51,355 nt of DNA, from assembly GCA_004431415.1 (NCBI GenBank), contig QPMI01000538.1:1-51355 (forward strand), in the 5' to 3' direction. Within the stretch, counting starts at the first letter, position 1. Each line of letters opens with the position of its first letter. This document shows, piece after piece, positions 9,204 to 50,881 of the stretch. The stretch comes from Cyanophora paradoxa CCMP329. Its lineage: Eukaryota > Plantae > Glaucophyta. The position numbers and the translations under genes are program-made. The notes beneath the pieces are model-generated. The model ran no database searches. It was not told the origin of the DNA and saw only the letters and a list, made by a program, of their open reading frames with translations.

Positions 9204-9229
9204 TGCATGCGAAAATCCGATTTTCGCAG

Positions 9230-26859: not shown

Positions 26860-26962
26860 GGTGTCACAGGTGTCACAGGTGTCACAGGTCAATCCCAAGG
26901 AAAGTCCTAGTGAGAAATTGATTTTTAAAATCCACGGGATAGACCTGTGACACCTGTGACAC
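26860..26962. promoter_or_regulatory. Iteron-type origin-like element, copy 1
   Basis: (GGTGTCACA)x3, an AT-rich core with GATTTTTAAAATC, then inverted TGTGACACC-TGTGACAC. Confidence 0.6.
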
Positions 26963-27295
26963 AAACCATATTCAGTAAGGACCTCATATATTGTGAAAAT
27001 CTCAGTGTTAGTTGGTGTAGTTGATTCAAAAAATGCATTTTATACTCTGATTCATTGTTATTTCCTGTGAAATTTGAGTCAACTCAACCCACTTAGTCAA
27101 CCCTTGCATTGAATTCGTAACAAAATCCATATACTATTACTACTTTTACGATTAATATGAGTCAACCTTGAGTCCACTTTAATTATAGGGGGAATCTAGG
27201 GGAATGTTGAGTTTTACTGTAATGAAATCGAACATTATTCCAATTACTTACAATAGAATTCTATCGTAAAAAATGTCCGGAATCCGGAAAATAAT

Positions 27296-27360
27296 CATTG
27301 TATAAAGCTACTGTAGTGAAAGGATATATTATATCTTTTTGTTACAGTAGCTTATCAATG
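27296..27360 (-). terminator. Imperfect hairpin downstream of the leftward gene block
   Basis: AAGCTACTGTA...TACAGTAGCTT with further paired flanks (CATTG/CAATG), about 50 bp after the AdoMetDC stop. Confidence 0.45.
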
Positions 27361-27410
27361 TTATTGTTAGAAAACAAAGGAATCCTTTAGAAATTCATTA
27401 TAGAAACCCA

Positions 27411-27809
27411 TCAAAACGGGAATCTATCATGTTTATGTCTCTCAGTCTTCTCAAATGTTAAGAAATTCATTGTTTTATCGATCTCATCTGCTACTGATTG
27501 TGTTTTATGCTGAGCTTCTTTACCACAACTGAATATATCAATTGCTAACATGCCTTCATTGGAATAACAATGAGCTGTACAATGGCTTTCATCTAATAGC
27601 AGAACCAAAGCAAAACCAGGAGGTGATAGTTTGCCATCAAATATCTCACAGTGTTTATGAACAATCCTAATACCTTGTCTCAATATTGCTTGTTCAAGGG
27701 TTCTCATAATCCAATTACCAAGAAAGCTAACATGCTCATAACCTGTTGCTATAGCTGTTTTAGCCTTGTAATCAAGCATTACATGAAAGCCTCTGTATTT
27801 AGTCTCCAT
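27411..27809 (-). CDS. speD: S-adenosylmethionine decarboxylase proenzyme (short prokaryote-type)
   Basis: LLLDESHCTAHCY...LAIDIFSCG: ESH autocleavage (pyruvoyl) motif plus the D..SCG motif; 132 aa. Confidence 0.85.
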   Translation of the reverse strand: METKYRGFHVMLDYKAKTAIATGYEHVSFLGNWIMRTLEQAILRQGIRIVHKHCEIFDGKLSPPGFALVLLLDESHCTAHCYSNEGMLAIDIFSCGKEAQHKTQSVADEIDKTMNFLTFEKTERHKHDRFPF

Positions 27810-27838
27810 TAAGAATACCTTAGAAAAATTAATTAATC

Positions 27839-28111
27839 CTAATCGAACCTAATGCAAATATCCCTGTACTCTACTTTGATTGATGAAGTAGCCCTTTTCC
27901 TGTAAGCCTGAGAATGCTTTTTGTTGCATTCCCTACAACCTGATCCCTTCACATGATTAAAGGGATATGTAAGGATCACCTTGTTACACTGCAAACATCT
28001 AACAGATACTTTCTCTTGAGCTTTGATGTAATGTGTCTCACTGTAATCGAATTTATCTTTACCATGAACTGTCATAGCAGCATCAATAAACTTTTTTGTT
28101 TTACTATCCAT
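27839..28111 (-). CDS. Small zinc-binding protein (DUF723-like, the module found in viral homing endonucleases)
   Basis: FIDAAMTVHGKDKFDYSETHY...VRCLQC...NHVKGSGCREC. Confidence 0.65.
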   Translation of the reverse strand: MDSKTKKFIDAAMTVHGKDKFDYSETHYIKAQEKVSVRCLQCNKVILTYPFNHVKGSGCRECNKKHSQAYRKRATSSIKVEYRDICIRFD

Positions 28112-28133
28112 ACTCTATATATAACCAATATTC

Positions 28134-28970
28134 TTATGGAGCAGTATCCTGTCCAAAAATGGGGAAATATCGATTTGTGCCATAATACTCAGCATAGGTA
28201 TTCTGCCTTGCAATAAAATCGGTTCTCTCAGCATATAATACACACTTGTAGATACCAAACTTGGTGGCTCTCACTAAGAACTGATAATCTTCCAAACCGA
28301 AATTGACTCCATGATAAGCAATACCAAAATTATCATATGGGGTGATCACAACAGCAAAATTAGGAGTTCCACCCTCTACTTGGCAAACAGCATAAACATC
28401 AGGTGGAATATCAACAACTACCTTATAGTGGTCACCAATCTCAACAAGAGAGTCTACTACTGCTGTTTGTTCATTCACAACAATTGGGAATATCTTGATT
28501 ATATAGGGGGCATTCATGCTGGGGACATAGGTTCGAATTCTTGTGTTAGGATCAATGGGATTGGGTTGATCATTCACAAATAGAGGCGCTCCAACAGCCC
28601 CACCAACCCTAAGACCATCACCAATATAAGCTCCCCCCGATTTGCAGTTAATAGCTCCAGACCTAGATTCAAAAGAATAAGTAGACAGAGGATCTCCATA
28701 GCTATCTGGGTCTCCATAATGAGCAGAAAAGTTTGCATTTGTGACAAGTAGCTTAGTTGTCTTAACTATTCCATTATTTTTATCACATCTGAGTTCCTGC
28801 AATCTCAGTTTGTGGGTGGAACCAAAAGTATTCATGGTAGGTTGGACCTCTGTGGATTGGAGACCTTCCACATCATCAAAAGTAGCATGCTGTAAAACAT
28901 GGTTTGCTGGGGCAGCTAATGATAGCTGTGGTGTTATAATTCGCTCTATTGGTGTGGGTGCCTCTGCCAT
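28134..28970 (-). CDS. Putative virion fibre/spike protein, paralogue of 29538-30392
   Basis: ELRCDKNNGIVKTTKLLVTNANF versus ELRADKNSGVVKTTRLLVTNANF; GGAYIGDGLRVGG fibre-like motif. Confidence 0.55.
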   Translation of the reverse strand: MAEAPTPIERIITPQLSLAAPANHVLQHATFDDVEGLQSTEVQPTMNTFGSTHKLRLQELRCDKNNGIVKTTKLLVTNANFSAHYGDPDSYGDPLSTYSFESRSGAINCKSGGAYIGDGLRVGGAVGAPLFVNDQPNPIDPNTRIRTYVPSMNAPYIIKIFPIVVNEQTAVVDSLVEIGDHYKVVVDIPPDVYAVCQVEGGTPNFAVVITPYDNFGIAYHGVNFGLEDYQFLVRATKFGIYKCVLYAERTDFIARQNTYAEYYGTNRYFPIFGQDTAP

Positions 28971-28993
28971 TTTACATTAAAGGGATATATCTT

Positions 28994-29488
28994 TTATGGG
29001 GTTGGCTCATCAATTACATTCAAATATGCAAACTCTCCTTTAATTTCGATTGCCCGGGCATTGTATGCTCTTGCTGCGTCTTCTTCTTTTTCAAAGTAGC
29101 CAATAATAATTTGTTTATAGTCGTGTTTGATTTTTGCAAGCCATTTCTTCATTCCTTTACTCCAAGAGACACCTTTGTATTTACTGGTGGATTCTTGTGT
29201 AGTTTTGGGTTTGTTCATCTGATTCTGTGCATGTGTGCATCTCCGAAGATTGGTTTTTCTATTGTCCAACTTGTCGTGATTGATATGATCAATCTGAATC
29301 TTAGGGTCAATTTCAGACATTGCATATCTGTGCGCCCTGGTGAGTGTTTGACCAATTCTGCAATTTACATAACCTCTCGTATCAATTGACCAAGTATACC
29401 TCTCAAACCGTTCTTTATCTTCATAATCAATTTTCATAAACTTCCCATGACCTTTTTTTCCTGAGAGAGCGATTAAAGCATAATCCAT
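28994..29488 (-). CDS. HNH endonuclease with AP2 DNA-binding domain
   Basis: IDHINHDKLDNRKTNLR (HNH) and SKYKGVSW...WLAKI...IGYFEKEEDAARAYN (AP2). Confidence 0.9.
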   Translation of the reverse strand: MDYALIALSGKKGHGKFMKIDYEDKERFERYTWSIDTRGYVNCRIGQTLTRAHRYAMSEIDPKIQIDHINHDKLDNRKTNLRRCTHAQNQMNKPKTTQESTSKYKGVSWSKGMKKWLAKIKHDYKQIIIGYFEKEEDAARAYNARAIEIKGEFAYLNVIDEPTP

Positions 29489-29537
29489 GATGGTGAATTC
29501 TTATACGTTTTACCAAGCTATTTTTTATATCATTTTT

Positions 29538-30392
29538 TTATGGGGTCGGGTCATCAATAATATCTGGCTCCGCATAGAATCCGGTTGTGAAGATATCAGC
29601 AACATTTACCCCACGAAGTGCTGATACAGCTGCTATATCTGTTCTCAGTCCCATAATCATAGTATTGTATACTCCAACCTCAGTGACAAACAGATCATAA
29701 GTAAATGTCAGATTGTTATAAACACAATATCCCCGACCAAAATGGTTGGATGCTTGAACAAAGAATAGGTAATTGTGACCTTGTTGGTTATTATTTGCTC
29801 TACACATTGAGAGCATTGCTGTGGGAAGAGGAATATTCCTTCTCACTCGATCAGTTCCTGTAATGGAAACCAATTCTGAATTTTCAAGAGTGACAGATGA
29901 TGCAACATAGAAATGCAGAAAAGGTTGCTGTGCAACTGGTGTATAGAACCGAATTCTTTGTGGGTTCTCTACATTTTGTTCAAGAGTATCTGGGACATCA
30001 TTGTAGGAAACAGAGGATGAAAGCTGACCTGAAACTCTGCAACCACCACCAATAAAAGCTCCTCCTGATCTCACAGTAACAGCAGCAGTATTCTTATCGA
30101 AATCTAGGGCTTTCAGATCAACACTGTAAGCATCAGGACCTCCATTTGTAGGTTGGAAGAAGTTTGCATTAGTCACAAGAAGTCGAGTTGTTTTAACCAC
30201 ACCAGAATTCTTATCAGCTCTCAGCTCTTTAACTCGAATAATCGAATTCTTATCAAAGGAGTTACCATTGGAATTGGGTCTCTCTGTGGATTCTAATCCA
30301 CGAACCTCATCATTTACTTCATGCTGGCGAAAATGCATTGCAGGGGATCCAAGGGAATATATTGGAAGTTGAACTCGATTATATTCACCCAT
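29538..30392 (-). CDS. Putative virion fibre/spike protein, paralogue of 28134-28970
   Basis: Shared N-terminal and GGAFIGGGCRVSG motifs, shared C-terminal RTD. Confidence 0.55.
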   Translation of the reverse strand: MGEYNRVQLPIYSLGSPAMHFRQHEVNDEVRGLESTERPNSNGNSFDKNSIIRVKELRADKNSGVVKTTRLLVTNANFFQPTNGGPDAYSVDLKALDFDKNTAAVTVRSGGAFIGGGCRVSGQLSSSVSYNDVPDTLEQNVENPQRIRFYTPVAQQPFLHFYVASSVTLENSELVSITGTDRVRRNIPLPTAMLSMCRANNNQQGHNYLFFVQASNHFGRGYCVYNNLTFTYDLFVTEVGVYNTMIMGLRTDIAAVSALRGVNVADIFTTGFYAEPDIIDDPTP

Positions 30393-30431
30393 TGCTTCTT
30401 TTACTAAGAAGGAAAGAAAAATAAACTACCA

Positions 30432-30737
30432 TCAAGCCAAAGTGATTAAATTCGATCCAAGGGATTGGTAAACAGTTGAAAGAACTTGCAGGTTGGACGT
30501 CATTGCTTTAATGTTGTTATCACACTCATTGTATTTAGCAACAGGGTCACCATATGCAGCTTGAGCAAGGACATTAACCAAGAGGTTTTTATACTCATTT
30601 ACAACTGGTGAGAGCTTGTTAGTTTGCTGAATCGTTTTTTCCACTGTTTGTAATGCGTTTACAAGGGTGATTGTATCAAAAGAAAGCGCAACAGGCTCAG
30701 TAGAATAGGTGGTTCCACCAAGTGGATAGGTCGCCAT
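30432..30737 (-). CDS. Hypothetical protein (101 aa)
   Basis: Intact ORF tightly packed behind the fibre gene. Confidence 0.6.
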   Translation of the reverse strand: MATYPLGGTTYSTEPVALSFDTITLVNALQTVEKTIQQTNKLSPVVNEYKNLLVNVLAQAAYGDPVAKYNECDNNIKAMTSNLQVLSTVYQSLGSNLITLA

Positions 30738-30740
30738 TTA

Positions 30741-33700
30741 TTATACTGTGACATTTTTAATTTGGTCTATTTGACTTTGGAGATTTTCACATGTTTGTGT
30801 TAAATATTTGCATTTCTGGGATAATTCCTTTACAGCTTCTATGAGAACTGGAATTAAACCGGTGTATTCGAGAGCTAAGTAGCCATCGTCTTGTTTTGCT
30901 CTCACAACTTCTGGTATTACCTGTTGCACATCTTGCGCAATTAAACCTAATCTTGTTCCATCTTTTTCACTTCCGATTCGTTTAAAACTCACTCCTTCTA
31001 ATTTCTCTATTGCTGAAAGAGCGCCAGTTATCTTTTTAATATCGGTTTTGTATCTTCTATCGCTACCTTGTCCGAGATAGTTTCTAACCCACATGTATCC
31101 ATCATCATTTATAAATGCTACATGTGTATCCCACGTATTTCTAAATTCTACTACTGTTGTTGCATGTCCTCTAATATATGTAGTTGATGCTGAACCGAAA
31201 TATATTCTTGAATAACCTTCACTTGAAGTAATCCAAGTTCCGGTTGCCCAAGTTGTGCGTTCATCTTTACTAAAAACGTTATCCCAACTTATAAAACCAT
31301 TTGCTGGGGCTGTTCTTCCTTTTTCTTTTGTCCATCCAATCATACCAATATGACATCTCCCTTTTCTTGCAACAAATCTTACATAGGAGAATGTATCACA
31401 ATGGAAAGAAGTCCATGTTAAGCCATCATGCCAATCTGAATCGTAATTATTTGAAACGGCTTGGTAGCAATTCACCCTCATAATGTGATGCCACCTCCCA
31501 TTTCGATAGCCTCCAATATCGAAATATCTGCAATTTGTCCAACACATATACTGAACATGACATGTTTTCATATTGGCTGGGACTTCAATTTGCGCCCAAC
31601 CACCATCTGTTTCATCGCCTGAAATGTTACTATAAAATCCATCGACTGGATTTGTGTAGGTTGGTGTCCAACCTGTTGTCCAAGATCCACTAAATGATAA
31701 GCTGTAAGAACCTGTTCCACTCCAAGTATCAAAACCTGTAATGTTTCCTATCGAATTAGTCACATTTGTTAATGTAAGCATAGAAGGTTTACTATAAACA
31801 TTATCCCAGTGGATAAAACCTGTGTGACCACCATAACTGGATCCATTCCATACTTTCATAAAACTAATACCCATAATGTGAACCCTTCCAACTTTTGCAT
31901 AAATCCGAATGCGAATAAAACGATTTCCAAGATGGATTTGAACATTATTTACACCACTATGGTTACCATCTGCTGAGGTGCTATATGGGTTGTAACTGTT
32001 GACAGTTGTAATATAAATACCATTTCCTTGTCGATTAATTCCCCAAATCTCAAACAATCGACAGTTTCCCCAAGGTAAATATGTTAAATATGCTGTTCCT
32101 GTGTGTAAACCATCGGGTATATTGTATTCTATCCAAGCGGAAGAAGTTTGGTCATCAACTTCATTATTAAATGCATACCCACCATAATTATAATATGGAT
32201 CCCATGATGATCCATACCCGAAATTCCAACCAGAAGAATAATTATATGGAGAACTACCTGCAACTGAGGCATCTGCTGTGTGAAACTTTGGAACAGCATT
32301 ACCATTTATTTGGAGATTTGTAGTAGCATTTATAGTGGTTGCTGTAATGGTATTATTGACCCAAAGGTTACCATTGTCATAAGATTTTAATAATGCTGTA
32401 TCTCCTGAGTTTCTAAATTCGATAGAGACACCTTCACCATTCCCATACCCTCGAATATATGTTGTATTCCCACTACCAAACCAAAACCTTGGAATATTAT
32501 CTGTTGATTTGTGCCAGTCCACAGAGTTCACTGTCAATAGATCACCTAAAACGTTAGGGACTTCTGCCTTTGTTGCATAAGTGCCTGCAAAATCAGGTTT
32601 ACTAAATACATTATCCCAAGAGATCATGCCCAATTCATTATCTGTTGCTCTCTGTCTGCTCCAACCAAAAACACCTGTGAGATGAATGCGACCTTTTCGA
32701 CCTTGAACATAAATATATTTGTAGAATTCGCAATTGACAGAGACAAACAAGATTGTATTGTGTGTTCCATCCTGATTAACCTGTTGAATTCCCTGATAGG
32801 CATTAACTCGTTTTAAGAAATGTTGATATCCATTAGTTGTTTGTCCATAGATATCGAAATATCTACAATTATACCAAGGCATATGCTGGATATAAAACGA
32901 TTTCATCCCTGCTGGAATAAGCCATCTCATCCAACAGCCACTGCAATCAGCATCATTCTCTGGTGTGGTGTAGCAACCATTTTGCCCTGTTCTTGATGCC
33001 CATGTAACAGTCCAGTTATCTGGAGATCTGTCTGTCGAAATAACATCTAATTGGTCGAAATCATAACCTTTTGGTATTGTGGTTCCCCCAATTTGTAGAG
33101 TGGTAGCATTCACAGTTCCATTAACAGTTCCACCTGTAAGAGGTAAATAATTCCCAAGAGCTGCTGTCAACTCTGCATCTGTTGCATAGCTATTTAAACT
33201 GGCTGAGGTCAGATATCCTTTATTGTTAAGGTAATCATCTGTCACTACTCCTGAAAGGGTGGTATTGTGTAAGTTTTTGGCTGCCATCCTCTGATTGACT
33301 TCTAAGGCTCCACCTGATGTCGTTTTAACCCAAGCAATCTCGCATTTTCCATGATCATCTGTGGGTTGTCCCGCAACAGGAAGGTAGTTTACAACTTTCT
33401 CCCTTGTGAACACAATTTTAGGTCTTGCTCCATCATATGCGCTTTGATCTGTAACGTTTATTTGAATAGCTGCTGAAAAATCGGCTACTTGTCCTGTTTC
33501 ACCTGGGTGATAATTCGTAACATAGATACTGGGGAAAGTATCATTTACTCCTACATTAAAATCACCATCATAAACTCCATTTACGATTGGATCCCTGGGT
33601 AATCTTACTGCAAGAGTTCCCTCCATTGGAGTGCCTGTTTGACCTGTAAAAGTCCCATTAAGACTGACATAATGATCATTCAAATATAACCTTTCAGGTG

Positions 33701-36250
33701 TATTACTGGATTGGTAAAGTGTGACTCCATTGAAAACATTTCCAATCGCATTCAATTGTGCAAATACTGGTTGTTGATCGATTTCACTCCAAGGGTGTCT
33801 GTGATTGCAGTTGGTGATCTGGGAATAATCATGACTGTGTGGATCAGGTGGAAAAGTTAATGGTGGATTTACGATTTGCTCCCATAAATGCCCATGGGAA
33901 CTGGGAGGGAATGTTAATGGTGGATTTGTTATATGCTCCCATAAATGCTCATGTGCAAAATCTGTTATTTCATCTTTTGTGTGGGTGTGGTTGTCGATCC
34001 AACCTAAAACTACATTGGATGTAGGATGATTTGGTAGATTTGCTGCAATATTCACAGTCAAATAGTCGACTTCTAGATTACTTCCGTAAATATTGCTTGC
34101 CCATAGATTACTGGTGTAAATGTTACTTGTATAAAGGTTACTGGTGAAAATGTTACTTGTGACTGTAAGGTTTGTGTCATTTTTGATCACAAAAAGAGAA
34201 AGAATGTTTGTTAATTCACCTTCATCAATATATCCTTGCTCTTCTAAATAATCCTCTGTGACCACTCTCGAAATAGTCTCATTGTGAATATTCTTTGCAG
34301 CCATCCTCTGATTGGCTTCCAGAACCCCACCATAGTTTGTTTTAATCCATGCAAGCTCTGCCCTTCCATAGTTATCATTTGCAGTTCCCACTATGGGAAT
34401 ATAGGAATATTTATCTCGACTGAAAACTATCATTGGTCTTGATCCATCTAGACTGCTTACATCTGCTACATGAACCTGTATAGCAGAGTTGTAATTTTGG
34501 TAGGTTGCTGGGTCTGTTGGGACTCTGAATGTATCTGTGGGAATGTCAGCCTCCATGTAGCTTGACACAAAGATATTTGGTATGGTTGCTCCTGGTTCAG
34601 GTGGTGGATTATAAGAGCCTGGTAATGTCCTAATATGAAGTGGTCCTCTCATAGCTGAATTCGCAAGTGTCCCATTCACATGAACATAGTGGTGATTCAA
34701 AAAGATCCTTTCAGGGACATTGCAAGTCTGGTAAAGAGAAACCCCCAAGTTATCAAGAGGCTCTACCTTTGCGAATTCTGGTTGGTCATTAATCTCATCC
34801 CAAGTATGTTCATGTTTGCTTGGTGGGAACTCAGTTGGAATCCCATCAATATCACCCCAATCATGCCTGTGGTCTTCTGGTGGGTATTTCTGTGGTTTGC
34901 CTAAGATCTCATCCCAGTCATGATTGTGGTCCTCTGGGGGATACTTTGCAGGTTTATTATTAATTTGTTCATAATCAGGGAAGAACTCCCAGATCTCAGG
35001 TCGAAATCCATCTGGTAACAATTCCTCATGGGGTTCATAAGGTTGCTCATAGTCAACAGCTGGTGGATCATGACCATCTGGTAAATACTCCTCATCAGGT
35101 TCATAGTTCTGTTCATACTCATATTCTTGTGGGTCAAAACCATCTGGGAGTATCTCCTCCTCATTGGGGTCAAACTGATCATACTCATATTCTTGTGGGT
35201 CGAAACCATCTGGTAAATACTCTTCCTCATCTGGAACGAATTGATATTCATCAAGCTCTAATATATCGACTTCAGGAGGTAAATACTGCTCATCTATTTG
35301 CTTTCTGGGTTCAATTATAGGTTTATTGCGAACTTGCTCCCAACTAACAATATGCTGCCAAAGGCTACATCTTCAGTTGCTGTGTATTCTCTTCCAGGCT
35401 GTTTCTTTGGTGTTAAATCGGGAGGTCCATTTGGAAATGGAATAGGGAATGGAACTGTTGGTCCATTGGGACCATAATGCTCAATTATTTCCCTTAGAGT
35501 TTTCTCACTCACAAGTTTCTCCCCATTTGCATACACATTGCTGCCATGGATATTTCGCCATTGCCTGGTTCTAATTCCAAGGTCTTTCACATTGCTATAC
35601 AAAGGCAAAAGGTGCCTATCCATTTCGACTAAATCAGGATGTAAATGGATTGCTACTGGTTGACTGGGGCTACTGTTGATTGTAATTGATGGCTTTTTTT
35701 GATGGACATCTTTTGGAGTAAAAAACCCAAAAGGCTCATTCCTCGCAAAGTCATATGTAATATCCTTGGGGTATACATCATTTGTGTAGGAGACCTGATT
35801 TGTGTTGGCAATGGGACCCACTTGCAATACTTGGGGGACCTCAGCTTTTGCAGTGCTGCCCTCATTGTAAATTCGCAAAGCTGTGTTCTGTTTGCCCTGC
35901 TCATCTTGAACATTGAAAATCAATCGACCACTATCGAACCTGGAAGGTATATCTGGGTGAGTGCCACTGGTTTTTAGTTTCCTAGGTCTCCTTCTTGTTG
36001 CTTTGATCTCTGCTACTTGGTTTGCTTTCACATTACCCAAACTAAAGGCTACACTGACATCCTCTTTATCTGGATCGGTTTGATTCACAGATAAAGCATG
36101 CTCCCTTGATTGAGTCTTTGATGAATTATCAGAGCTGTGGTCAATTGAAACTGAACCCTTTACTTTAATATTATCAAAGTTCACATGCTTGGTGCTGCTT
36201 GCATTATCATCTTGAATGGTTTCTAGATTTGGTGGGTAATTGAAGCTCAT
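30741..36250 (-). CDS. Large fibre protein with C-terminal intramolecular chaperone (peptidase S74); ~1836 aa if one missing T near 35360 is restored
   Basis: The frame of the 1426-aa ORF stays open to ~35365 and joins the 311-aa ORF (GCCTTT[T]GG). HxHxWxxIxxxP repeats, acidic LPDGFDPQEYEY repeats, and SDRRYK...GLIAQDV...YTGLIPVLIEAVKEL (S74). Confidence 0.82.
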
Positions 36251-36293
36251 GGCTTTTACTATATGGATTTATAAAATTCCTGATAAGTAAAAG

Positions 36294-37850
36294 ATGCCTC
36301 TCAAAGTAGTTCTCAGTTTGTCAGGGGGAGGTGCAAGGGGCATTATCATAACCAGGCTGCTCAAAGAAATCGAAAATCGAACTGGCAGGAGAATAATCGA
36401 TCTTGTGGATCTTGTGAGTGGAACTTCCACTGGTGGGATCATTGCTATTGGGTTAAACATCAGGCATCCTGATAAACCAGGTGAACCTAAACTGACAGCA
36501 AACGATTTACACAATATTTACCTAACTCAACTGCCCTTGATTTTCGCAAATCCTCGAAATATAATCGAAAATGCCCTATTTAACACAAAGTATGATGTGG
36601 GACCCTTGGAGACTGCAATCAATTCAGTTACTGGTGAATCACTAATACAGGATTCCCTTAAGGACATTGTGATCACATCCTTTGATACTCAGAATATGAA
36701 ACCAATATTTATCACAAATGACAACAATTACAACTTTATGCCTTGTAAGATTGCTGCTAGGGCTACTTCTGCTGCTCCTACATATTTCTCTCCTGTAAGC
36801 ATTGTTGATTTCAATAGGGGAGTATATGTCTGTCTCATTGATGGTGCCATTTCGGGAAACAATAATCCCAGTGTGTGTGGTTACAGCCATGCAAAGAAGA
36901 TTTACAGTGATGATGATGACATTATAGTAATAAGCATCTCTTGTGGAGAGGTGGACCCACATTTAGAGTCTGATTATGTGGGTTATGCTTATGAGACTGT
37001 AAACAGCTGGGGCATTCTCTCATGGATTGCCTCAACAGATGGAAGCCCATTGATTAACATGCTCATGGCTGCAAGTGAGCTATCTGCCCTTGATAAGATG
37101 GAGGAGTTGTTACCCTACAACTATGATCAGGATTATGGGAGATACTATAGGTTATCAGTCCCTCTTCCAAATCATATAGTAAGCTCCCTGGATGACACAT
37201 CTAAGATCCCAGACATGCTTGCATTCACTGAAACATACATTGCAGCAAACAATGATATGATTAATAAGCTTTGCAGCCTACTAGTAGCAAACTATGAACT
37301 AAAGAACCCTACAAAGGCTTACATTTCATCCACTCTCACTACATCACCTCCTTTGGATGCCAATTGGTATCAGCTTGCAGATGATGCCTTTACTGCCTCA
37401 TCCTCTGTGACAGGTAAAGAGCCTTTCATGGCTAGACCTTCAGCATTTGGCTGGGAAGCTGGAGCCTATGCTCCTGAACAGATATGGGAAACCCCCACTG
37501 AATACCTTCAAGTTGCTTTTCCATATACTTTTGAACTCTCCTCTGTGATTGCCTATGGATCAGGGGACACCAATGCTTTTATTAAGACTTTCAATGTGGC
37601 AACATCCACTGATGGGATCAACTGGTCTTTTATTCGATCAGATGGGCAAAACAAAATATATGTCTGTGAGAACATTAACAATGCTCACAACTCTGGTGAT
37701 GTGGCTCTATTGAGTGGGTTCCCTCTCAGCATCAAGGATGCTTTTTACATAGGTTATTCTCTGAGAATAAGATATATTCGCATTTATCCCCTTGTGTATG
37801 TGAATGCTCCCACAATGAGAGTTGACTTTACAGGTGCCTTTATTCGATAA
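36294..37850 (+). CDS. Patatin-like phospholipase fused to a discoidin (F5/8 type C)-like domain
   Basis: SGGGARG, GTSTG, ATSAAPTYF, IDG; C-terminal STDGINW...RYIRIYP...MRVDFTG. Confidence 0.88.
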   Translation: MPLKVVLSLSGGGARGIIITRLLKEIENRTGRRIIDLVDLVSGTSTGGIIAIGLNIRHPDKPGEPKLTANDLHNIYLTQLPLIFANPRNIIENALFNTKYDVGPLETAINSVTGESLIQDSLKDIVITSFDTQNMKPIFITNDNNYNFMPCKIAARATSAAPTYFSPVSIVDFNRGVYVCLIDGAISGNNNPSVCGYSHAKKIYSDDDDIIVISISCGEVDPHLESDYVGYAYETVNSWGILSWIASTDGSPLINMLMAASELSALDKMEELLPYNYDQDYGRYYRLSVPLPNHIVSSLDDTSKIPDMLAFTETYIAANNDMINKLCSLLVANYELKNPTKAYISSTLTTSPPLDANWYQLADDAFTASSSVTGKEPFMARPSAFGWEAGAYAPEQIWETPTEYLQVAFPYTFELSSVIAYGSGDTNAFIKTFNVATSTDGINWSFIRSDGQNKIYVCENINNAHNSGDVALLSGFPLSIKDAFYIGYSLRIRYIRIYPLVYVNAPTMRVDFTGAFIR

Positions 37851-38772: not shown

Positions 38773-38801
38773 TTTAATATATAAATATAGATAAAAGAAG
38801 A

Positions 38802-39811
38802 ATGCCTGTGGATTACATCGAGGTTAGCTCATTTAATACAATCTCTGGTGATGGTCCCACATCAAGCTTTGTGGCTAGACTCCCAGTAGTTATGAGAATG
38901 TGAGGGCTGTGAGACTGGTCTCAGCCGAATTTTATAACAGTATCCCTATGGTGAGTGGTGAAACCAAAGCAGGAGATGTGACAGTTGACAATGCATTTAG
39001 CATTTATTATTCTGAACAAACTCCTGGAGCTGGAAGCTCAGGAATTCCAACAGTTCGCCCAGCTGCTGACTATGAACAATGGAAACAATTCATTATAAGT
39101 CGAAACACCCCCATCCAAAGCCACCAGCAACTGGTGAATGTAATTAACTCTAAATTCGAAGGCAGAAATCCCCAACCATCCATTCGCTGCAAATGGGATG
39201 AATCACTGAAACGAATTATATTCCACTCAGCAGTACCATTTTACTTGGCTTTCTCAGTAGCTGTGAACCCAAGCCAACAAACAATCCAAAAGCTGTTGAG
39301 TTCAGCTAGACTGCTGGGTCTTGATCCTGGAAGATATGGTAACTCCCCAATCCAATCACAGGTCTATGATGCTCTCACTGATGGAATCTTTACTGGTGGT
39401 CGCGTGAATGGCATTATATCTTCTTTTGAGCCTGAGAAGACCAGGGACAGTGTTTTGTTTGTGAGAGTAAAGGAGCTGGGTGATCTGGTGCAATGTGGGG
39501 ATGGTCTTCTGACTGGTTACTTTCACAAAATAGTGGTCCCTGATAAAGACTATGGTGAGCATGTTGTTTACAATTCAACAGAAGCTCACCCACTTTACAA
39601 ATACTATAATAAAAAGGTTGGATTATCCACTTTCTCGGTTGATATTGTAAATGCTATTAATGAACCAATTGATTTTGAGGGTCAACCTGTTCATCTTACC
39701 TTTGAAATTCGCTATGGTGATGAGCCAGCTGGGGACCCAGTTTATGAATACTTCAAGATGCGAATGTCACAGCTTCACCCTTCCTATCCAGTTATTACAA
39801 ACTTCGCATAA
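38802..39811 (+). CDS. Minor capsid protein (penton) 2 (frameshift near 38885)
   Basis: ATG at 38802, MPVDYIEVSS...YENVRAVRLVSAEFYNS; C-terminal VDIVNAINEPIDFEGQPVHLTFEI. Confidence 0.72.
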
Positions 39812-39864
39812 ATTAAGGATCATTGGTAGATTTTTTATGTTGCAGTATAATAAAAGAGAATATA

Positions 39865-41231
39865 ATGGATATCACTTCCACTCTTCAAAGACTTTCGCTG
39901 AAAGAAGCCCTAACAACCCCAGAAGAGGCGAAAGCCTTTTTCCTGGATAACTCCCTTATGCTTGGTCTCGAATCCAAATCTAAGCCAGTTCTAGTTGTTG
40001 TGAATCCCAGCAATACTTTTGAGAATAATGTTGGAAATCGCATTTCCTTCAAGCTACCTCGCTACAATTTCTGTGGAAAACTCGAACTTGCTTTCGACCT
40101 TCCAGCCATCACTTTTGGTGGTGAAGATCTTGTTCGAAATGGATACACTCGCCCTGTTGGTGCTTTAGTTCAGCGACTTGAAATTACCTATGGATCTTAC
40201 ACCTACCATATTCCATCTGATTTCCTTGCTCATTTCCCCCTGGTCTATTATTCGGAGGATCAACTAGCTAAAAAGAAACGCTCAATGGGCATGGTTCATG
40301 GTATCCCTGCTCATGGAACCAACCGACTTGGTGGCTCATTCTTTGTTGAAATCCAGTGCCTTGGCTCAATCACTACCTTCCCCTTGGTGCTTTATCTGGT
40401 GAAATGGTTGTTACTGTTTGGTTTAAGGATGCTGATAAGGGTTATGTTGAGACTTCCTATGGTGGTCGCTCTCTTCCTGTTGTTGGTGGGACAGCTGCTG
40501 ATAAGACAGAAGATGATGGTCTTGGTGATACTGCTAATGCTACACTTGCCCATGTTGGTCAAAATATCACAACTTTCAGCCTTGGTGCAACAACCCCTGG
40601 TATTACAATTACCTCTCCTCGCCTTTACATGCATGCTGTTAATGTTTCTGATGAGCTTTTCGCTACTGTAATTGAAAAGGTTAAGACTACTGGCATGGCT
40701 ATTCCTGCTCTAGACATTGGGTTTGTTGATGCTAGTGCTTTCCCTGCCAAGGGCAATGCCCAACCCAATCGAATTAACCTCTCTCAAATATCAGGTCTTG
40801 TATATGCTCTGCTTGTTTCAGTTCGTGATAATGCAACTGTTGACAAAGCCAATGGCTCCCACAGTGTTCTTAAGACCTATGCCAACTCCAAAGATATTAC
40901 TTTCACTGTTGAAATTAATGGACAACGACTTTATGCCACTGAGCCAATTCCACTGCTCAAAGGTGCTGAGCTAATTGCTGATGCCTTCAAATGCTCTAAC
41001 ATGGATAAGGTTGCTGATCGCTATGTCCTTTCGGGTATGAGTTTCTGCATTGATGGAGAGAAGGCAATTCGAAATATTGCCCAGTCTGGTTATGTTGATT
41101 TAACAAATTCCTCCTCTTCATTCCTCACCCTGTACATGCCTTCAGATAAGGTAATCGATGTTAATGTTCGCGCTCTCATGCATTCCTATATAATTTTGGA
41201 CAAAGATGGTCTCCGAAGAATTAATTTATAG
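39865..41231 (+). CDS. Major capsid protein, double jelly-roll (~455 aa; one frameshift near 40354)
   Basis: ISFKLPR...LELAFDLP...LVQRLEITYG; adding one C restores VEIPVPWLNHYLPL. Size and position between penton and ATPase fit. Confidence 0.78.
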
Positions 41232-41296
41232 ATTGTTACGATATTCAGTCTCTCTGCATTATTTTTATCTGTATTTATTTAGAAAGATATACAACA

Positions 41297-42079
41297 ATGA
41301 CTGATTTGGATGAATTTGTGGCTGGTGAAATGATTAATCCCCCTTTTCGAGTCCTAGCCATTGGTAAATCGGCTACTGGTAAATCAGAAGCTGTAAAGTA
41401 TTGGTTGAAGCAGTTGCATGATGCCAAAAAGATTGATGTTGTATTAGTTGTGAGTGGAACCAGCTTCAATCATTTCTGGGATAAAGTTGCAACATTGCAA
41501 CTGGGAAAATGGGATGCCCCTTACATTGCTAAATTGCTAGATGAAAGGCAAGAGAAAATAGAAAAAGGTGAACCTGTTAACCAGTTATGTGTGGTTCTAG
41601 ATGATTTAATCGATAATGAGATTGTAGACCTAACTCGTGATAAAATTATTGGCTCTCTGTATTCCAGAGGTCGCCATTCGAAAATATCCATTATCTGCAT
41701 CACACAAAAGCTAAGGAAAGTCTCTTCGACTATTCGAGTTAATTCGGACTATGCAATGTTTCTAAGTGCTGCAAATCGCAAAGAACTTGAAGCCATAGAG
41801 GAAGAATACAATATAATGCGAAATAAAGAGGATTTTTACAAGATGTTTGAAGAGTATGTTCACTCCTATCAGTATATTATTTGGTCCTCTGCAAACTACT
41901 CAGTTAAATACTATGTAGATAAAGCTGAGCTTGTGAAAGATTTTCCATTTCCTCGCTTCCACAGGAAGCCAAAAAAGAAAGAAGATGAACTGAAACCTCC
42001 AGAGAAAGAGGAAGCCCCTAAAGAAGTGAAAAGCCAAGTCCATAGCAATAAATTGATGCGATATAAACGCGGTTTATAA
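41297..42079 (+). CDS. A32/FtsK-HerA-type DNA packaging ATPase
   Basis: Walker A GKSATGKS, Walker B VVLDD, SRGRH (Arg finger), ICITQ, IRVNSDY. Confidence 0.92.
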   Translation: MTDLDEFVAGEMINPPFRVLAIGKSATGKSEAVKYWLKQLHDAKKIDVVLVVSGTSFNHFWDKVATLQLGKWDAPYIAKLLDERQEKIEKGEPVNQLCVVLDDLIDNEIVDLTRDKIIGSLYSRGRHSKISIICITQKLRKVSSTIRVNSDYAMFLSAANRKELEAIEEEYNIMRNKEDFYKMFEEYVHSYQYIIWSSANYSVKYYVDKAELVKDFPFPRFHRKPKKKEDELKPPEKEEAPKEVKSQVHSNKLMRYKRGL

Positions 42080-42107
42080 AATTATCTCTCATTCTAATAA
42101 AGATACA

Positions 42108-42548
42108 ATGCCTCCCAAACGAAAGATAGGGATCCCAGCTGGGGCTGTTGGCTATTCAGGTGGTGGAAACAATGGATCCATTAATACTGAACCAATGAAA
42201 TTCAATGGTATGAATGAGGTAAAGCCCTCACAACAAGAAGAGGACCCCCTCAATGCTGCCTATGAGGAATCAGTCGATGACAAAGCCCCACAGGCTTCAA
42301 CCAGTGACCAACTCAATATATCACCAGAAGCCTCAAAAATGAAAGCTGTTGCTGAGGGTGCCAGGCGAATTATTGGTGCTGCTGATGATAAAGGTTTAGG
42401 CTTGCAAGATCTATCACTGGCTCGCAAAGGTGAAGGTCTAAGTAAGGAATCAGACAAGGTTATCCAGTCTATGGCTGGTGAAGTCACATATAAGACTGCT
42501 CCCACTCAAAATATTCATCGAATCCCCAAGGCTCAATGGATGAGATGA
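42108..42548 (+). CDS. Hypothetical protein with N-terminal NLS-like PPKRK
   Basis: ORF of 146 aa with an upstream TAATAAAG; may continue into 42536-43124 through frameshifts. Confidence 0.55.
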   Translation: MPPKRKIGIPAGAVGYSGGGNNGSINTEPMKFNGMNEVKPSQQEEDPLNAAYEESVDDKAPQASTSDQLNISPEASKMKAVAEGARRIIGAADDKGLGLQDLSLARKGEGLSKESDKVIQSMAGEVTYKTAPTQNIHRIPKAQWMR

Positions 42549-43124
42549 CTGCTAAACTTAAAGATCTGGAAGCCAAATCAAGTGCCTTGGAGCAGTATGT
42601 TACTGAGAAGAAAGAGAGAGCTAAGCTAAAGGAGATGCTTCGAAAGGAAGTTATAAAATGGGCATTACTGGTGTCCCAGATAAACAGTTCATTGCTAAGA
42701 AAGAGACCAAATCGATGAGCAAGCAGTAGATGAAATGAAAACAAAGACCCAGAAGGGAACTATTGAACCTGGTGCCACCAAAGCTGAAGTAGAAAAGGGA
42801 GTAGCCCAACAGTATATAAAAGACGAGTTTGGCTTTAATTTTCTCTGTTTTATTAGAGATATGGACATAATACGAAAGTTCTTCGAGATGTTCAGTCTGC
42901 ATGTGGTGAGCAATTGCCACAGTGGATGTTGTGAGACAACAGTGGAGTTTGAGATGTCAGATAATGAGGATAATGCCTCAGAAGCAAGAGAGAGAAGGAG
43001 GTCTACAGTTTCTGTGGAGTCAATGCCAGCAGACCCCACAGAGTATACATATGAGCAACAGGAGCAACAGGAGTATCCAAGGAGAAGTTCTCTGTCAGCA
43101 GAAAACGTTTTCTCTGGAATATAA
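42536..43124 (+). CDS. Hypothetical coiled-coil/acidic protein (probably frameshifted)
   Basis: Adjacent same-strand ORFs 42536-42718 and 42735-43124. Confidence 0.4.
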
Positions 43125-43201
43125 ATGGAGGACACTATTAGTTTAATCGAGTTTACCAGTGATGAACCTGTTACTGAGGTTCTATAAGACACATTCTAGC
43201 A

Positions 43202-43465
43202 ATGCAGAAACGATATAGAGAGGACCCAGCATATAGAGAGTATAAAAAGCAGCAAGCCTGGCATCCTATTATCGCAGAAAAGCCCAAAAAGAGGAGCAGA
43301 GACCCAGAGGGAGACCGATTAAATATTATTTGCCAACTGAAAGTAGCAATGGACCCCCAGGTCTATAAGATAATTGAGAAAAAGCGGTCTCAGTATGCAA
43401 CTGAGGCAGCTATAAAAATATATACAAAGGAATTGGCTTTATACTTGCAATCAAGTCACAGATAA
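43202..43465 (+). CDS. Hypothetical basic protein
   Basis: ORF beginning MQKRYREDPAYREYKKQQA; the true start may be 43126. Confidence 0.4.
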   Translation: MQKRYREDPAYREYKKQQAWHPIIAEKPKKRSRDPEGDRLNIICQLKVAMDPQVYKIIEKKRSQYATEAAIKIYTKELALYLQSSHR

Positions 43466-43677
43466 CTTTTGTAAATATGCTTTTGTTGTTTTTTGTTTGC
43501 ATTCTCAGACACTGAAACAGTTATGTGAATGTTTACTGATCTATTTCTCTTTGGTTTTGTTGCATACATATTGTAACCTTTTAATCTCTGTGACATTTCG
43601 ATATATGCCCCTATATCTCCATGCTTTATGCATTTATCTAACTCAGTCATGGTCATCTCATCAAGAGTCTTTGCCAT
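43456..43677 (-). CDS. Small hypothetical protein (MAKTLDEM...)
   Basis: ATG at 43677 preceded by a TACTTAAG motif like those of the other leftward genes in this block. Confidence 0.4.
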   Translation of the reverse strand: MAKTLDEMTMTELDKCIKHGDIGAYIEMSQRLKGYNMYATKPKRNRSVNIHITVSVSENANKKQQKHIYKSYL

Positions 43678-43744
43678 TTTGTCTTCACTATACACAATCA
43701 AGTAAGCCTTAAGTATTCTTGTCAAATTTTGGTCTTTTTCGATC

Positions 43745-43846
43745 GGTGTCACAGGTGTCACAGGTGTCACAGGTCTATCCCACCGATTTTCAAAATCATT
43801 TTTTATGTTTGACTTTCCCTGGGATGGACCTGTGACACCTGTGAAC
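43745..43846. promoter_or_regulatory. Iteron-type origin-like element, copy 2 (core inverted relative to copy 1)
   Basis: (GGTGTCACA)x3...GATTTTCAAAATC...TGTGACACC, about 60 bp downstream of the primase-helicase stop. Confidence 0.65.
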
Positions 43847-43906
43847 AACACCATTTCCAGTAAGGCTATAAACATTACATATACAATCAATCATTTATCG
43901 TTTTGT

Positions 43907-50878: not shown

Positions 50879-50881
50879 GAG

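Follow-up and report, generated by a model that had tools for sequence, protein, structure and literature searches.

Why does a virus that is integrated into host DNA carry two copies of the same 103-bp iteron hairpin, one close to its terminus and the other just behind its primase-helicase gene? An initial annotation of the window, by which we mean the whole stretch of DNA that was analyzed (51,355 nucleotides), regarded the copies as internal origins onto which the helicase is loaded. Our analysis upholds this in part: the position and architecture of the elements, a predicted winged helix in the helicase and the location of the same iterons in phages (7/7 non-coding IMG/VR arrays) argue for it, on the basis of comparison and not of experiment. 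Hence, we regard it as a partly supported proposal that the two elements are probably replication origins, or an origin and a partner site resembling crr of P4, recognized by the virus's own primase-helicase.

Two iteron hairpins and their cores

26860..26962, no strand: copy 1 of the iteron hairpin element (repeat anatomy and ssDNA fold)
26963..26980, + strand: flank motif ACCATATTCAGTAAGG adjoining the right arm of copy 1 (sequence comparison of the copies)
43745..43847, no strand: copy 2 of the iteron hairpin element (repeat anatomy and ssDNA fold)

In both elements, three tandem 9-bp GGTGTCACA iterons are opposed to two inverted ones around a 51-nt core with 5-bp stem extensions and a 39-nt loop, an anatomy that is seen directly. 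The left arm of copy 1 (26860-26890) consists of GGTGTCACA three times and GGTC; its core (26891-26941) comprises a mismatch base, ATCCC, the loop (26897-26935), GGGAT and a further mismatch base; and its right arm (26942-26962) reads GACC, TGTGACACC and TGTGACAC, that is, two inverted iterons. Copy 2 has a 31-nt left arm (43745-43775) with no difference from that of copy 1, a core at 43776-43826 with the loop at 43782-43820, and a right arm (43827-43847) made of GACC, TGTGACACC and a degenerate TGTGAACA, which gives one perfect and one degenerate inverted iteron. GTG is present on both strands of each iteron. Folded as single-stranded DNA, copy 1 reaches −34.2 kcal/mol (z −8.5) and copy 2 −33 kcal/mol (z −9.0), and a 26-bp interrupted stem (21 + 5 bp) with the 39-nt loop forms on either strand (z −7.6 to −9.0).

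The elements at both sites are real. A scan of the whole window with the iteron pattern GGTGTCACAGGT, allowing up to 2 mismatches, gave 14 matches against 1.72 expected, a number reached in 0 of 100 shuffles. All 9 matches with 0 or 1 mismatch fall inside the two elements, no further iteron cluster of the same kind was found elsewhere in the window, and within the window the GATTTTKAAAATC palindrome occurs only in the two cores. The earlier description of iterons converging on an AT-rich core is correct for the opposed iterons, but the core is moderately AT-rich (69% and 72% in the two loops versus 61% for the integrated element) and one inverted iteron of copy 2 is degenerate.

No inverted repeat in the window is longer than the one that the two elements form (90 nt, 86% identity; BLASTN E value of 4e−26). 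As the initial annotation claimed, the cores are homologous in opposite orientation: the loops agree at 27 of 39 positions in this orientation and at 17 of 39 in the same orientation, and 27 was reached in 0 of 100,000 shuffles. The elements as a whole, however, are not inverted. The core alone is clearly so, whereas the iteron asymmetry (three on the left and two on the right of the + strand) and the right flank are co-linear. The flank common to both copies on the same strand is ACCATWTYCAGTAAGG (14/16; 43848-43865 at copy 2), and a weaker inverted version, CCTTAGAAAATTGG, lies to the left of copy 1; beyond about 20 nt the surroundings of the copies are unrelated. The loops are 69% identical, with mismatches (judged by eye) mostly in one 12-nt stretch and the last 3 positions. 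We read the identity of the left arms next to the divergence of the loops as a probable sign of constraint, and we count it in favor of an origin. The inversion of the loop amid co-linear outer parts suggests a hairpin-type flip and is best accounted for by the loop having turned around when the identical arms recombined or served for template switching.

Replication genes beside copy 2

26335..26618, no strand: left terminus, a 284-bp foldback with 41-nt inverted arms at 26335-26375 and 26578-26618 (inverted-repeat search and alignment with a duplicated host copy)
39865..42079, + strand: morphogenetic genes between the copies, a capsid-like ORF and an A32-type packaging ATPase (Atlas features, Pfam)
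43907..45160, − strand: C-terminal half of a P4/D5-type primase-helicase, D5_N + DUF5906 (Pfam, homologues, PDB, AF2 model)
45212..46400, − strand: fragments of the N-terminal (primase) half in several reading frames (stop-to-stop frames)
47979..51355, + strand: fragmented Polinton-type protein-primed DNA polymerase B in 7 consecutive frames, running off the window (Pfam and homologues)

Alignment with the duplicated host copy places the host/element junction at 26334/26335; the right terminus lies beyond the end of the window at 51,355. Copy 1 is located 525 bp inward from the element's left end and 450 nt after the − strand gene at 27411-27809, and the copies are 16.8 kb apart. Between them lie a capsid-like ORF in two overlapping frames (39865-40671 and 40404-41231; Capsid_N clusters of the Atlas with a score of 0.96, to be taken as a lead only) and the packaging ATPase (41297-42079; Pfam Pox_A32, E value of 5e−11). 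To the right of the helicase lies another replication gene, of a different kind, which encodes polymerase B; the polymerase fragments match Pfam DNA_pol_B_2 below the cut-off (E value of 2e−5) and have 52 homologues (E values down to 2.5e−21), mostly of 1100-1340 aa (range, 263-1581 aa), a few of which carry PF03175. The ATPase, the capsid lead, the fragmented polymerase and the D5-type helicase fit the eukaryotic Polinton-like virus that had been proposed. With both replication genes in pieces, this virus copy has decayed, and function cannot be taken for granted for its elements.

The distance between the end of copy 2 and the TAA stop of the helicase gene (43907-43909, − strand) is 59 nt, which is directly observed, and the copy occupies the 229-nt gap between this stop and the next − strand ATG (43677), 67 nt before that ATG. 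Hence, copy 2 does follow the primase-helicase gene, as had been stated, but the ORF represents the C-terminal half only, and the primase half is split over frames in which Pfam gave no match. Beside copy 1, tblastn detected no helicase remnant (no match below an E value of 0.04). Homologues of the helicase have 813-968 aa and 35-36% identity, some being named P4 family primase, and the full-length homologues have about 850 aa. A search of the PDB matched African swine fever virus (ASFV) C962R (E value of 1e−15), and the family profile matched C962R (4e−87), poxvirus D5 (4e−19) and, in the ATPase core, SaPI5 PriRep5 (7OLA; 4e−6). A winged-helix domain is predicted at the C terminus, where the AF2 model (pLDDT of 79.8 overall and at least 87 over model residues 31-110) resembles the RFX DNA-binding domain (Z of 7.8 and 7.5, rmsd of 3.1 and 2.2, 70 and 62 residues); the P4 origin-binding domain is absent among the fold matches listed.

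We hypothesize that the predicted winged-helix domain would bind the 9-bp iterons on both arms and that two helicase hexamers would assemble face to face across the 51-bp core. The AT-richer loop with its palindrome would then melt or extrude as a hairpin, and the primase half would begin synthesis.

The same iteron elsewhere and competing explanations

The exact 21-mer of the iteron triplet occurs at 14 IMG/VR loci. All 7 non-coding triplets among them lie 3-312 nt 3' of an SF3 helicase gene (VapE-like/D5-type, DUF5906), a location that is directly observed, whereas of 68 other loci from these scans, 1 has a VapE-like gene (Fisher p = 4e−9), and this exception (L177) turned out to have a genuine array, located 50 nt 3' of its helicase gene. 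When the spacing was loosened, 4 of 13 further non-coding arrays were found 120-174 nt 3' of SF3 primase-helicase genes, and two loci encoding PrimPol, D5_N and DUF5906 (L179 and L214) have three iterons, a 45-nt spacer and two inverted iterons, the layout seen in the window. Another 8 of the 13 have other contexts (terminase, integrase, capsid or unknown). Of 8 non-coding arrays in prokaryote genomes, only 2 have a primase or helicase gene in their vicinity (directly for L141, at 1.6 kb for L134), and the remainder adjoin resolvase, metabolic or unknown genes; an Alistipes contig carries two arrays 760 bp apart, away from replication genes. In all 5 phage records (5/5), the iteron boxes are grouped in one place, so a second copy far away is not the norm. 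We take the recurrence on virus contigs, a matter of sequence comparison, to be the main independent support for an origin.

Among themselves, the phage helicases with the shared iteron have identities of 22-39% (except one pair at 79%), and BLASTP found no similarity to the helicase of the window apart from a weak C-terminal match; in that single comparison, the best local match of the L214 protein runs from C terminus to C terminus (E value of 6e−4). Because these helicases are dissimilar to each other and to that of the window, the identical iterons do not follow the helicase tree. The initial annotation had suggested looking for co-varying iterons downstream of D5 genes in related Polinton-like viruses. 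We compared 78 loci whose D5-type helicases have 27-36% identity to that of the window: none has two GGTGTCAC boxes, and iteron-like repeats 3' of the gene were not enriched (7/78 as the best of up to four windows, versus 253/7770 single background windows); long inverted repeats were mildly enriched (16/78 versus 12/156). Conservation thus goes with the iteron and not along the helicase tree, and the objection that an origin should be conserved next to homologous helicases holds by half, with conservation alongside the iteron in phages but not at the 78 related helicases.

In the host species, contigs of 4 of 4 runs examined at that stretch contain the copy 1 element with its flanks, and the stretch 26300-36200, whole or in part, is present in 20 runs among the matches listed. 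No close relative was found outside the host species, and the junction pattern gave nothing but chance matches in IMG/VR (1) and JGI metagenomes (30). The multi-copy state in the host species is counted for the origin, as are the position, the opposed-iteron architecture, the two clusters, the phage recurrence and the predicted DNA-binding domain. Against it stand the protein-primed polymerase that the virus also encodes, which would initiate from the genome termini without an internal origin, the search for close relatives that found none, the lack of enrichment at the 78 related helicases, iterons that do not track the helicase tree, the single clusters of the phage records, the decay of this copy, the arrays in other prokaryote and phage contexts, and a core that is short and moderately AT-rich relative to SaPI origins.

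Could the elements instead be module boundaries or recombination sites? The helicase end module would then be exchanged between viruses, or a recombinase acting on the inverted cores would flip the 17-kb segment. We consider this unlikely, although it is compatible with origin function. It has a precedent in the terminal and module-flanking repeat of Gezel-14T (PMC11296320), and the presence of a primase-helicase alongside a decayed polymerase B is in line with the replicon-replacement model published earlier (PMC11296320). The opposite orientation of the cores agrees with it, and so does the summed contig depth, a measure that is not a copy number, which falls in all 4 runs from about 12000-23000 (bin 42700-43363) to about 2200-5000 (bin 43364-44027), so that fewer host copies may share the helicase side right of copy 2. 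However, the ORFs of 26.2-51.4 kb (the element continues past the window) showed no match to a recombinase or integrase family, a repeat of ~100 bp at 86% identity is poor for homologous exchange, and the same iterons 3' of phage helicase genes would be left unexplained. The earlier idea of module swapping is thus backed by hints (the depth drop and Gezel-14T) and by nothing beyond them, and inversion of the 17-kb segment found no backing: the contigs of 4 runs show 0 strand-changing joints at copy 1, an absence that is uninformative because the contigs end at the arms. Host contigs do contain variants with a different core after the same left arm (loose end at 26904). Such variants would suit a selfish miniature palindromic (foldback or MITE-like) element, or a neutral duplicated palindrome, inserted twice by chance. 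This explanation also draws on the compact 103-bp unit with inverted arms that occurs twice in unrelated surroundings and on bacterial arrays away from replication genes, such as the Alistipes pair. We regard it as very improbable, as neither copy is flanked by a target-site duplication, the 26 kb of host DNA within the window holds no copy, the left arm is fully kept while the loop diverged, and unrelated phages repeatedly have such arrays just 3' of helicase genes.

A role in transcription, with the stem as a 3'-end hairpin for the helicase and upstream transcripts and/or as an operator for repression by the winged-helix domain, seems rather improbable to us. Both copies do lie downstream of − strand genes, the stem with its loop forms on either strand, and pRN1 has a terminator between gene and origin (PMC4234260). 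But the element is found at just two of about 30 genes, a terminator requires neither 9-bp iterons nor conserved loop blocks, and RNA loops would differ between the copies because the loop is inverted. Prediction of bacterial-type terminators gave none at the element, Rfam gave no match to it, and the non-coding phage triplets are always 3' of helicase genes specifically.

Comparison with known origins

How does an origin of this kind compare with known systems? In Polinton-like viruses, terminal repeats have been proposed as origins recognized by the primase-helicase (the "replicative end-module" hypothesis; PMC11296320). In Gezel-14T, a repeat of >300 bp is present in the terminal repeat and again directly behind the replication/integration end module, an arrangement taken to indicate that the module is mobile (PMC11296320), and the window similarly has copies 525 bp from a terminus and just behind the primase-helicase gene. 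The published repeat is direct and is described without iterons, whereas the window has an iteron palindrome of 103 bp whose core is inverted.

SaPI/PICI replicons use self-loading SF3 helicases of the Rep/PriRep kind, and the SaPI origin comes directly after rep (PMC9371898; bioRxiv 10.64898/2026.10.17.759575), as copy 2 lies directly 3' of the helicase gene. In SaPI origins, the AT-rich region has to be flanked on either side by at least 2 iterons, pointing in opposite directions (PMC9371898), and both copies have such opposed sets (3 + 2, with one degenerate iteron in copy 2). In SaPI5, three 7-nt iterons separated by AA, and thus with the 9-bp period of the iterons in the window, are bound by three neighboring C-terminal domains (bioRxiv 10.64898/2026.10.17.759575); the SaPI helicase reads its iterons with a winged helix, and the helicase of the window has a predicted one. 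SaPI origins differ in their size (~300 bp, 6-12 iterons of 5-7 nt and a ~100-bp AT-rich center) from the 103-bp element with 5 iterons of 9 nt and a 39-51-nt, only moderately AT-rich core, which resides in a eukaryotic host and has a second copy 16.8 kb away.

The archaeal plasmid pRN1 has an essential ~100-bp stem-loop (21-nt stem, 58-nt loop) that begins 54 bp after orf904, is sufficient in cis and carries GTG/CAC motifs in its stem (PMC4234260). Copy 2 has its 26-bp interrupted stem and 39-nt loop 59 nt after the helicase gene, and GTG in its iterons. Hence, it shares with pRN1 a ~100-bp stem-loop within ~60 bp 3' of a prim-pol/SF3/winged-helix gene, with the primase half visible here as broken frames only. 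The pRN1 stem differs in being single copy, without tandem iterons and not conserved in sequence among relatives.

P4 also has a helicase of the P4/D5 family, one iteron cluster directly 3' of its gene and a distant second cluster with the same iteron. In its record (X51522), crr (4291-4590), which P4 requires in cis, lies 46 nt after alpha (4636-6969) and 4.7 kb from ori (9086-9809), compared with 16.8 kb between the copies in the window. The iteron is used in both orientations, and P4 ori, with three direct iterons, one inverted, an AT-rich stretch and two direct, starts with three tandem iterons as the window's elements do. GGTGAACAG resembles GGTGTCACAG, with A versus TC as the difference; the type 1 iteron TGTTCACC differs from the GGTGTCACA of the window, and because the latter is the iteron here, the likeness is a resemblance to GGTGAACAG only. 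The P4 iteron is 8 nt long with a 10-11-bp period, lies in 120-bp direct repeats and forms clusters that are not single hairpins. Judged by this comparison, the element would work like a P4 site, and it is not a member of the P4-type ori/crr pair.

Two iteron hairpins in an integrated Polinton-like virus

Window positions 1 to ~26334 are repeat rich and have 60 to 74% G+C; from 26335 to the end, the G+C content is 36 to 42% and virus genes are present. The repeats include a host segmental duplication, in which 1-3551 matches 22617-26224. This duplication (window 1-3660 versus 22617-26334) is near-identical up to 26333/26334, and alignment of the two duplicates places the left host/virus junction at 26334/26335. 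This junction and the genes listed here bear out the identification as an integrated Polinton-like virus (PLV), the right end of which lies outside the window.

Features of the viral part
26335-26618: foldback of 284 bp at the left terminus of the virus; inverted arms of 41 nt (85%)
26860-26890: copy 1, left arm, GGTGTCACA three times in tandem plus GGTC
26891-26941: copy 1, core, with mismatch base, ATCCC, 39-nt loop, GGGAT, mismatch base
26942-26962: copy 1, right arm, GACC plus two inverted iterons
within 27411-29488, minus strand: HNH + AP2 endonuclease-like ORF
within 27411-29488, minus strand: S-adenosylmethionine decarboxylase-like ORF (E 2.5e-11)
36294-37850: patatin lipase fused to an F5/8 type C domain
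39865-40671: capsid-like ORF, with an Atlas lead to Capsid_N clusters
41297-42079, plus strand: packaging ATPase, Pox_A32 type
43745-43847: copy 2, 31-nt left arm identical to that of copy 1, right arm of one perfect and one degenerate iteron
43907-45160, minus strand: helicase, D5_N + DUF5906
47979-51355, plus strand: Polinton-type protein-primed polymerase B in seven consecutive frames, running off the right edge
1303 aa: fibre with an S74 chaperone domain

Several other features of the sequence were seen. Copy B of the host duplication runs on into the virus, and copy A (from ~3661) runs into a different, G+C-richer sequence, the first bases of which weakly resemble the virus terminus (AAATGC..GTTT..TCG.CTT). 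The G+C-rich host part has a 2.68-kb unit three times in tandem (12859-19000, 78 to 100% identical). The 284-bp foldback may represent a terminal structure or else a miniature derivative element, and the ~240 bp between it and copy 1 are AT rich with short repeats (TCGATAATCTGT.TATAT twice, TTAATCGA). The decarboxylase-like and HNH/AP2 ORFs and the patatin lipase are unusual cargo for such a virus. CCAGATGG occurs four times at a 66-bp period (35008-35213, minus strand) inside a 116-aa ORF (34901-35251), hence as a 22-residue coding tandem repeat.

The virus query stretch was found, whole or in part, in 20 sequencing runs of one single species, 14 of which have at least half its words; no RNA runs were among the matches listed. 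Thousands of short contigs match the stretch at 90 to 100% identity, and the species therefore has many diverged virus copies. The capsid-like gene (39865-41231, plus strand) and the primase half of the helicase gene (45212-46400, minus strand) are each broken over overlapping frames in the window, and host-species contigs differ by single-letter length in both regions. The virus copy in the window looks decayed, and other copies may be intact.

Direct inspection of the sequence found both elements as the initial annotation had described them, and they are real and non-random. The window holds 14 iteron matches versus 1.72 expected, all nine matches with 0 or 1 mismatch lie inside the two elements, and a sliding count of repeated 8-mers gave no comparable cluster elsewhere in the viral part. 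No inverted repeat in the window is longer than the one formed by the two elements (90 nt, 86%). Because the iterons are inverted, the elements fold on either strand into a stem-loop with a 21 + 5-bp stem and a 39-nt loop (z -7.6 to -9.0). The annotated AT-rich core holds in part: the loops, with 69% and 72% AT, exceed the virus (61%), but the enrichment is moderate. The loop palindrome GATTTTKAAAATC is absent from the rest of the window. Rfam gave no match in 26000-51355, and a simple terminator scan found none at the element.

How do the two copies relate to each other? The cores had been called homologous in opposite orientation, which applies to the loops: these are identical at 27 of 39 positions when one is inverted versus 17 of 39 in the same orientation, none of 100,000 shuffles reached 27, and the inverted reading is also the better fit for the two mismatch bases. 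However, iteron counts and right flank are co-linear: on the plus strand, both copies have three iterons to the left of the core, two to its right, and a common right flank, ACCATWTYCAGTAAGG (14/16). Loop flips occur at hairpin-forming inverted repeats, and a flip of the loop between identical arms would be the simplest, not a proven, account of this alignment. The alignment would also fit an inversion of the whole element with later gain and loss of one iteron, since the flank motif recurs to the left of copy 1 in a weaker, inverted form.

The proposed inversion of the 17-kb segment between the copies is unsupported. The contigs of four runs stop at the element arms (e.g., 43734, 43827); at this reach, no contig joints at copy 1 were listed, and no loose ends with a flipped core were among the matches listed. 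As an additional role, the repeats may plausibly serve for replication-module exchange.

The same contigs contain variants. At position 26949, C replaces G in about one-third of the summed contig depth in all four runs; this position is the center of TGTGACA, the core of an inverted iteron, and the change is equivalent to reversing the orientation of that 7-mer. Another common change is G>A at 26942. Loose ends at 26904 (runs X1, X2, and X11) retain the left arm and the adjoining 14 nt of the core before passing into an unrelated core (GGAAAATCACTC...); hence, variant elements with other loops exist.

Iteron arrays in phages and prokaryotes

An exact 21-mer (two and a third iterons) was found at 14 IMG/VR loci. 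Half of these are coding repeats of the Gly-Val-Thr type or lie in other contexts. The other seven (L002, L004, L006, L007, L008, L009, and L012) are noncoding and consist of three iterons, a spacer, and inverted copies, and in all seven the array starts 3 to 312 nt past the stop of a VapE-like/DUF5906 SF3 helicase gene, with a Prim-Pol or Toprim primase domain fused or preceding. Among 68 control loci rated coding or other, a search with eleven SF3 proteins found such a gene at only one (7/7 versus 1/68, Fisher 4e-9). At this one, L177, which the filter had counted as coding, a true convergent array lies in G+C-rich DNA, 50 nt 3' of a VapE-like gene.

A second scan, for three GGTGTCAC boxes 1 to 14 nt apart, gave at least 120 stretches, with 80 loci among the matches listed; an open-frame filter rated 61 of these coding-like and 19 noncoding. 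After removal of L202 and L231 (same contigs as L002 and L004) and of four long tandem repeats (L188, L204, L205, and L210), 13 arrays were examined; L196 had no ORF to test. Among these listed matches, four arrays lie 120 to 174 nt 3' of SF3 primase-helicase genes (L158, L179, L214, and L229), one (L174) follows 76 nt after a DnaB-type helicase gene, and eight are elsewhere, beside terminase, integrase, capsid, or unknown genes. The L179 and L214 proteins are of the PrimPol + D5_N + DUF5906 type, and their arrays, with three iterons, a 45-nt spacer, and two inverted iterons, have the plan of the window's elements.

The link is weaker in prokaryote genomes, where leaving out loci with open frames of at least 150 aa and two long degenerate tandem repeats (L133 and L139) gave eight noncoding arrays among 27 loci. 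One array is directly 3' of the gene for an 846-aa Toprim protein (L141), one is 1.6 kb from a DUF5906 gene (L134), and the remaining six have other or unknown genes as neighbors.

Whole-record searches of five phage records showed a single box cluster in each, none longer than 280 bp, and a distant second copy is therefore peculiar to the window. In one phage contig (L004, record G004), the arrays make up a larger two-part palindrome 3' of the VapE-like gene (minus-strand arrays at 8750-8851, plus-strand arrays at 8936-9028), amounting to two opposed elements ~100 bp apart. An Alistipes MAG contig (L137, 3001-3781) has two opposed GGTGTCAC hairpin arrays 760 bp apart, each followed by AAAGG/TAAGG-type repeats, between glyoxalase and S1-domain genes and with no helicase nearby.

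Searches of IMG/VR and the JGI metagenomes gave no close relative of the element itself. The junction pattern GTGTCACAGGTCNATCCC had 1 IMG/VR and 30 metagenome matches, which were single boxes in GC-rich or coding DNA and were judged to be chance.

The primase-helicase and its predicted reader domain

Copy 2 adjoins the helicase gene, as annotated: it lies 59 nt from the stop and 67 nt from the next same-strand ATG (43677), in the middle of the 229-nt gap between the two. Beside copy 1, tblastn found nothing below E 0.04 that would represent a helicase remnant. The ORF at 43907-45160 is the C-terminal half of a primase-helicase, the upstream primase half being split into several broken frames. 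Full-length homologues have 813 to 968 aa, are 35 to 36% identical, and combine PF23162, PF08707, PF08706, and PF19263; some are labelled P4-family primase by their source. The family profile matched ASFV C962R (E 4e-87), poxvirus D5 (4e-19), and 7OLA (4e-6), the SaPI5 PriRep5 helicase according to the portions of PMC9371898 consulted. In a sequence search of the PDB with the ORF, ASFV C962R was the sole match, and an IMG/VR query with the helicase alone gave no relative.

The last 132 residues were modelled with 32 homologues (pLDDT 79.8; at least 87 over model residues 31 to 110). Model residues 46 to 111 match winged-helix DNA-binding domains, the best being the RFX domain (Z 7.8, rmsd 3.1, 70 residues; Z 7.5, rmsd 2.2, 62 residues), followed by a long list of other winged helices at Z 4 to 5, values that the fold-search tool's own note rates as middling. 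A C terminus of the winged-helix fold class is thus a credible prediction. Neither the P4 alpha origin-binding domain nor the SaPI Rep C-terminal domain was among the fold matches listed.

Does the iteron follow the helicase? The initial annotation had looked to co-varying iterons downstream of related D5 genes, and this expectation was not borne out among the relatives searched: two GGTGTCAC boxes occur at none of the best 79 IMG/VR relatives, which are 27 to 36% identical to the window's helicase and mostly in giant-virus bins. Iteron-like repeats 3' of the gene were no commoner than elsewhere (78 loci with enough downstream sequence), and long inverted repeats 3' of D5-type genes were mildly enriched. 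Conversely, the helicases that share the iteron are 22 to 39% identical to each other, except for one pair at 79%, and the phage members gave one weak C-terminus-to-C-terminus BLASTP match to the window's helicase (E 6e-4, single comparison) and otherwise none. Shared without helicase similarity and absent from these relatives, the iteron is not distributed along the helicase tree. The explanation is either an independent exchange of the reader domain or a motif favored for another reason. Such a reason might be the presence of GTG on both of its strands, GTG being the start site of the pRN1 primase (PMC4234260, in the portions consulted). A 24-kb IMG/VR contig (L048) has a ~100-nt stem-loop at 7297-7397, with 14-nt arms and AGCCTACAT repeats, 58 nt past a D5-type helicase gene; its geometry is like that of the window's elements and its sequence is different.

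Putative origins and their known counterparts

By analogy, we consider it rather probable that the elements are helicase-cognate origins: copy 2 would be the origin next to the gene, and copy 1, near the terminus, either another origin or a crr-like partner. Position, architecture, the predicted reader domain, and the same array beside phage SF3 helicase genes argue for this assignment, and the missing co-variation along the helicase tree weakens it. Two further points stand against it. To the right of the helicase lies the fragmented polymerase B, with homologues at E values down to 2.5e-21 and mostly 1,100 to 1,340 aa long (full range, 263 to 1,581 aa), and protein-primed polymerases start at genome ends; the virus therefore has the remains of two different replication systems side by side. 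Moreover, both replication genes are in pieces in the window copy. A wider hypothesis, which we regard as unlikely, would take the GGTGTCAC-box origin and the SF3 primase-helicase as one replicon cassette common, by descent or winged-helix reader exchange, to bacterial tailed-phage-like elements and eukaryotic PLVs. The PLV copies would then be a P4-like ori/crr pair around the 17-kb capsid module, the flipped loop a trace of hairpin or cruciform intermediates at a working origin, and the decayed polymerase a sign of ongoing replicon replacement.

For PLVs and virophages with a primase-helicase, the sections of PMC11296320 consulted offer only the hypothesis that terminal repeats are the origins. 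The element, 103 bp long, is a concrete origin candidate: it has a defined protein site of 9 bp and lies next to the presumed reader, which makes the question of where replication starts directly testable. The phage arrays 3' of VapE/D5-type helicase genes suggest a widespread, undescribed origin type, for which they provide easy bacterial systems, and hint at a link between bacterial and eukaryotic mobile replicons. By title and abstract, papers co-mentioning iterons with polintons or virophages concern bacteria or archaea, and none tying the two together was found. Literature searches did not find the tandem motif (16-mer), found the 8-mer only in primers and similar sequences, and gave no relevant paper on VapE and iterons.

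In Gezel-14T, a repeat of >300 bp is present in the terminal repeat and just behind the replication/integration module (PMC11296320, same sections). The likeness is in placement, copies 1 and 2 of the window lying 525 bp from the terminus and behind the helicase, respectively, whereas the form of the repeat differs.

The pRN1 plasmid has a 100-bp stem-loop (21-nt stem, 58-nt loop) 54 bp past its prim-pol/SF3/winged-helix gene; this stem-loop is essential, and sufficient on transfer to another place, and similar stem-loops are reported 3' of such genes in phages (PMC4234260, in the portions consulted). In the excerpts available of PMC9371898 and bioRxiv 10.64898/2026.10.17.759575, the SaPI origin is directly downstream of rep and requires an AT-rich region flanked at either end by at least two iterons, the two sets pointing in opposite directions, and binding depends on the C-terminal winged helix. 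In the PriRep5-DNA structure described there, three neighboring C-terminal domains sit on three AA-separated iterons with the wing in the major groove, and a fourth contacts an inverted iteron beyond the AT-rich gap. The SaPI5 iteron of 7 nt plus AA gives a 9-bp period, as in the window.

In the annotated P4 record, the cis-required crr (4291-4590) lies on the 3' side of the gene for the alpha primase-helicase, 46 nt from it, with ori 4.7 kb off; both have the same "type 1" iteron in both orientations; ori has GGTGAACAG three times in tandem, an inverted copy, an AT-rich stretch, and two further copies. The plan is the same as in the window, and the window's iteron is related yet different; its elements would work like the P4 sites without being a P4 member. 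Iteron origins 3' of SF3 primase-helicase genes are a kind already known from bacterial and archaeal mobile elements. The new points are that the setting is a eukaryotic virus, that the form is a compact iteron hairpin, that two copies are present and differ by a flipped loop, and that the exact iteron is common to phage replicons.
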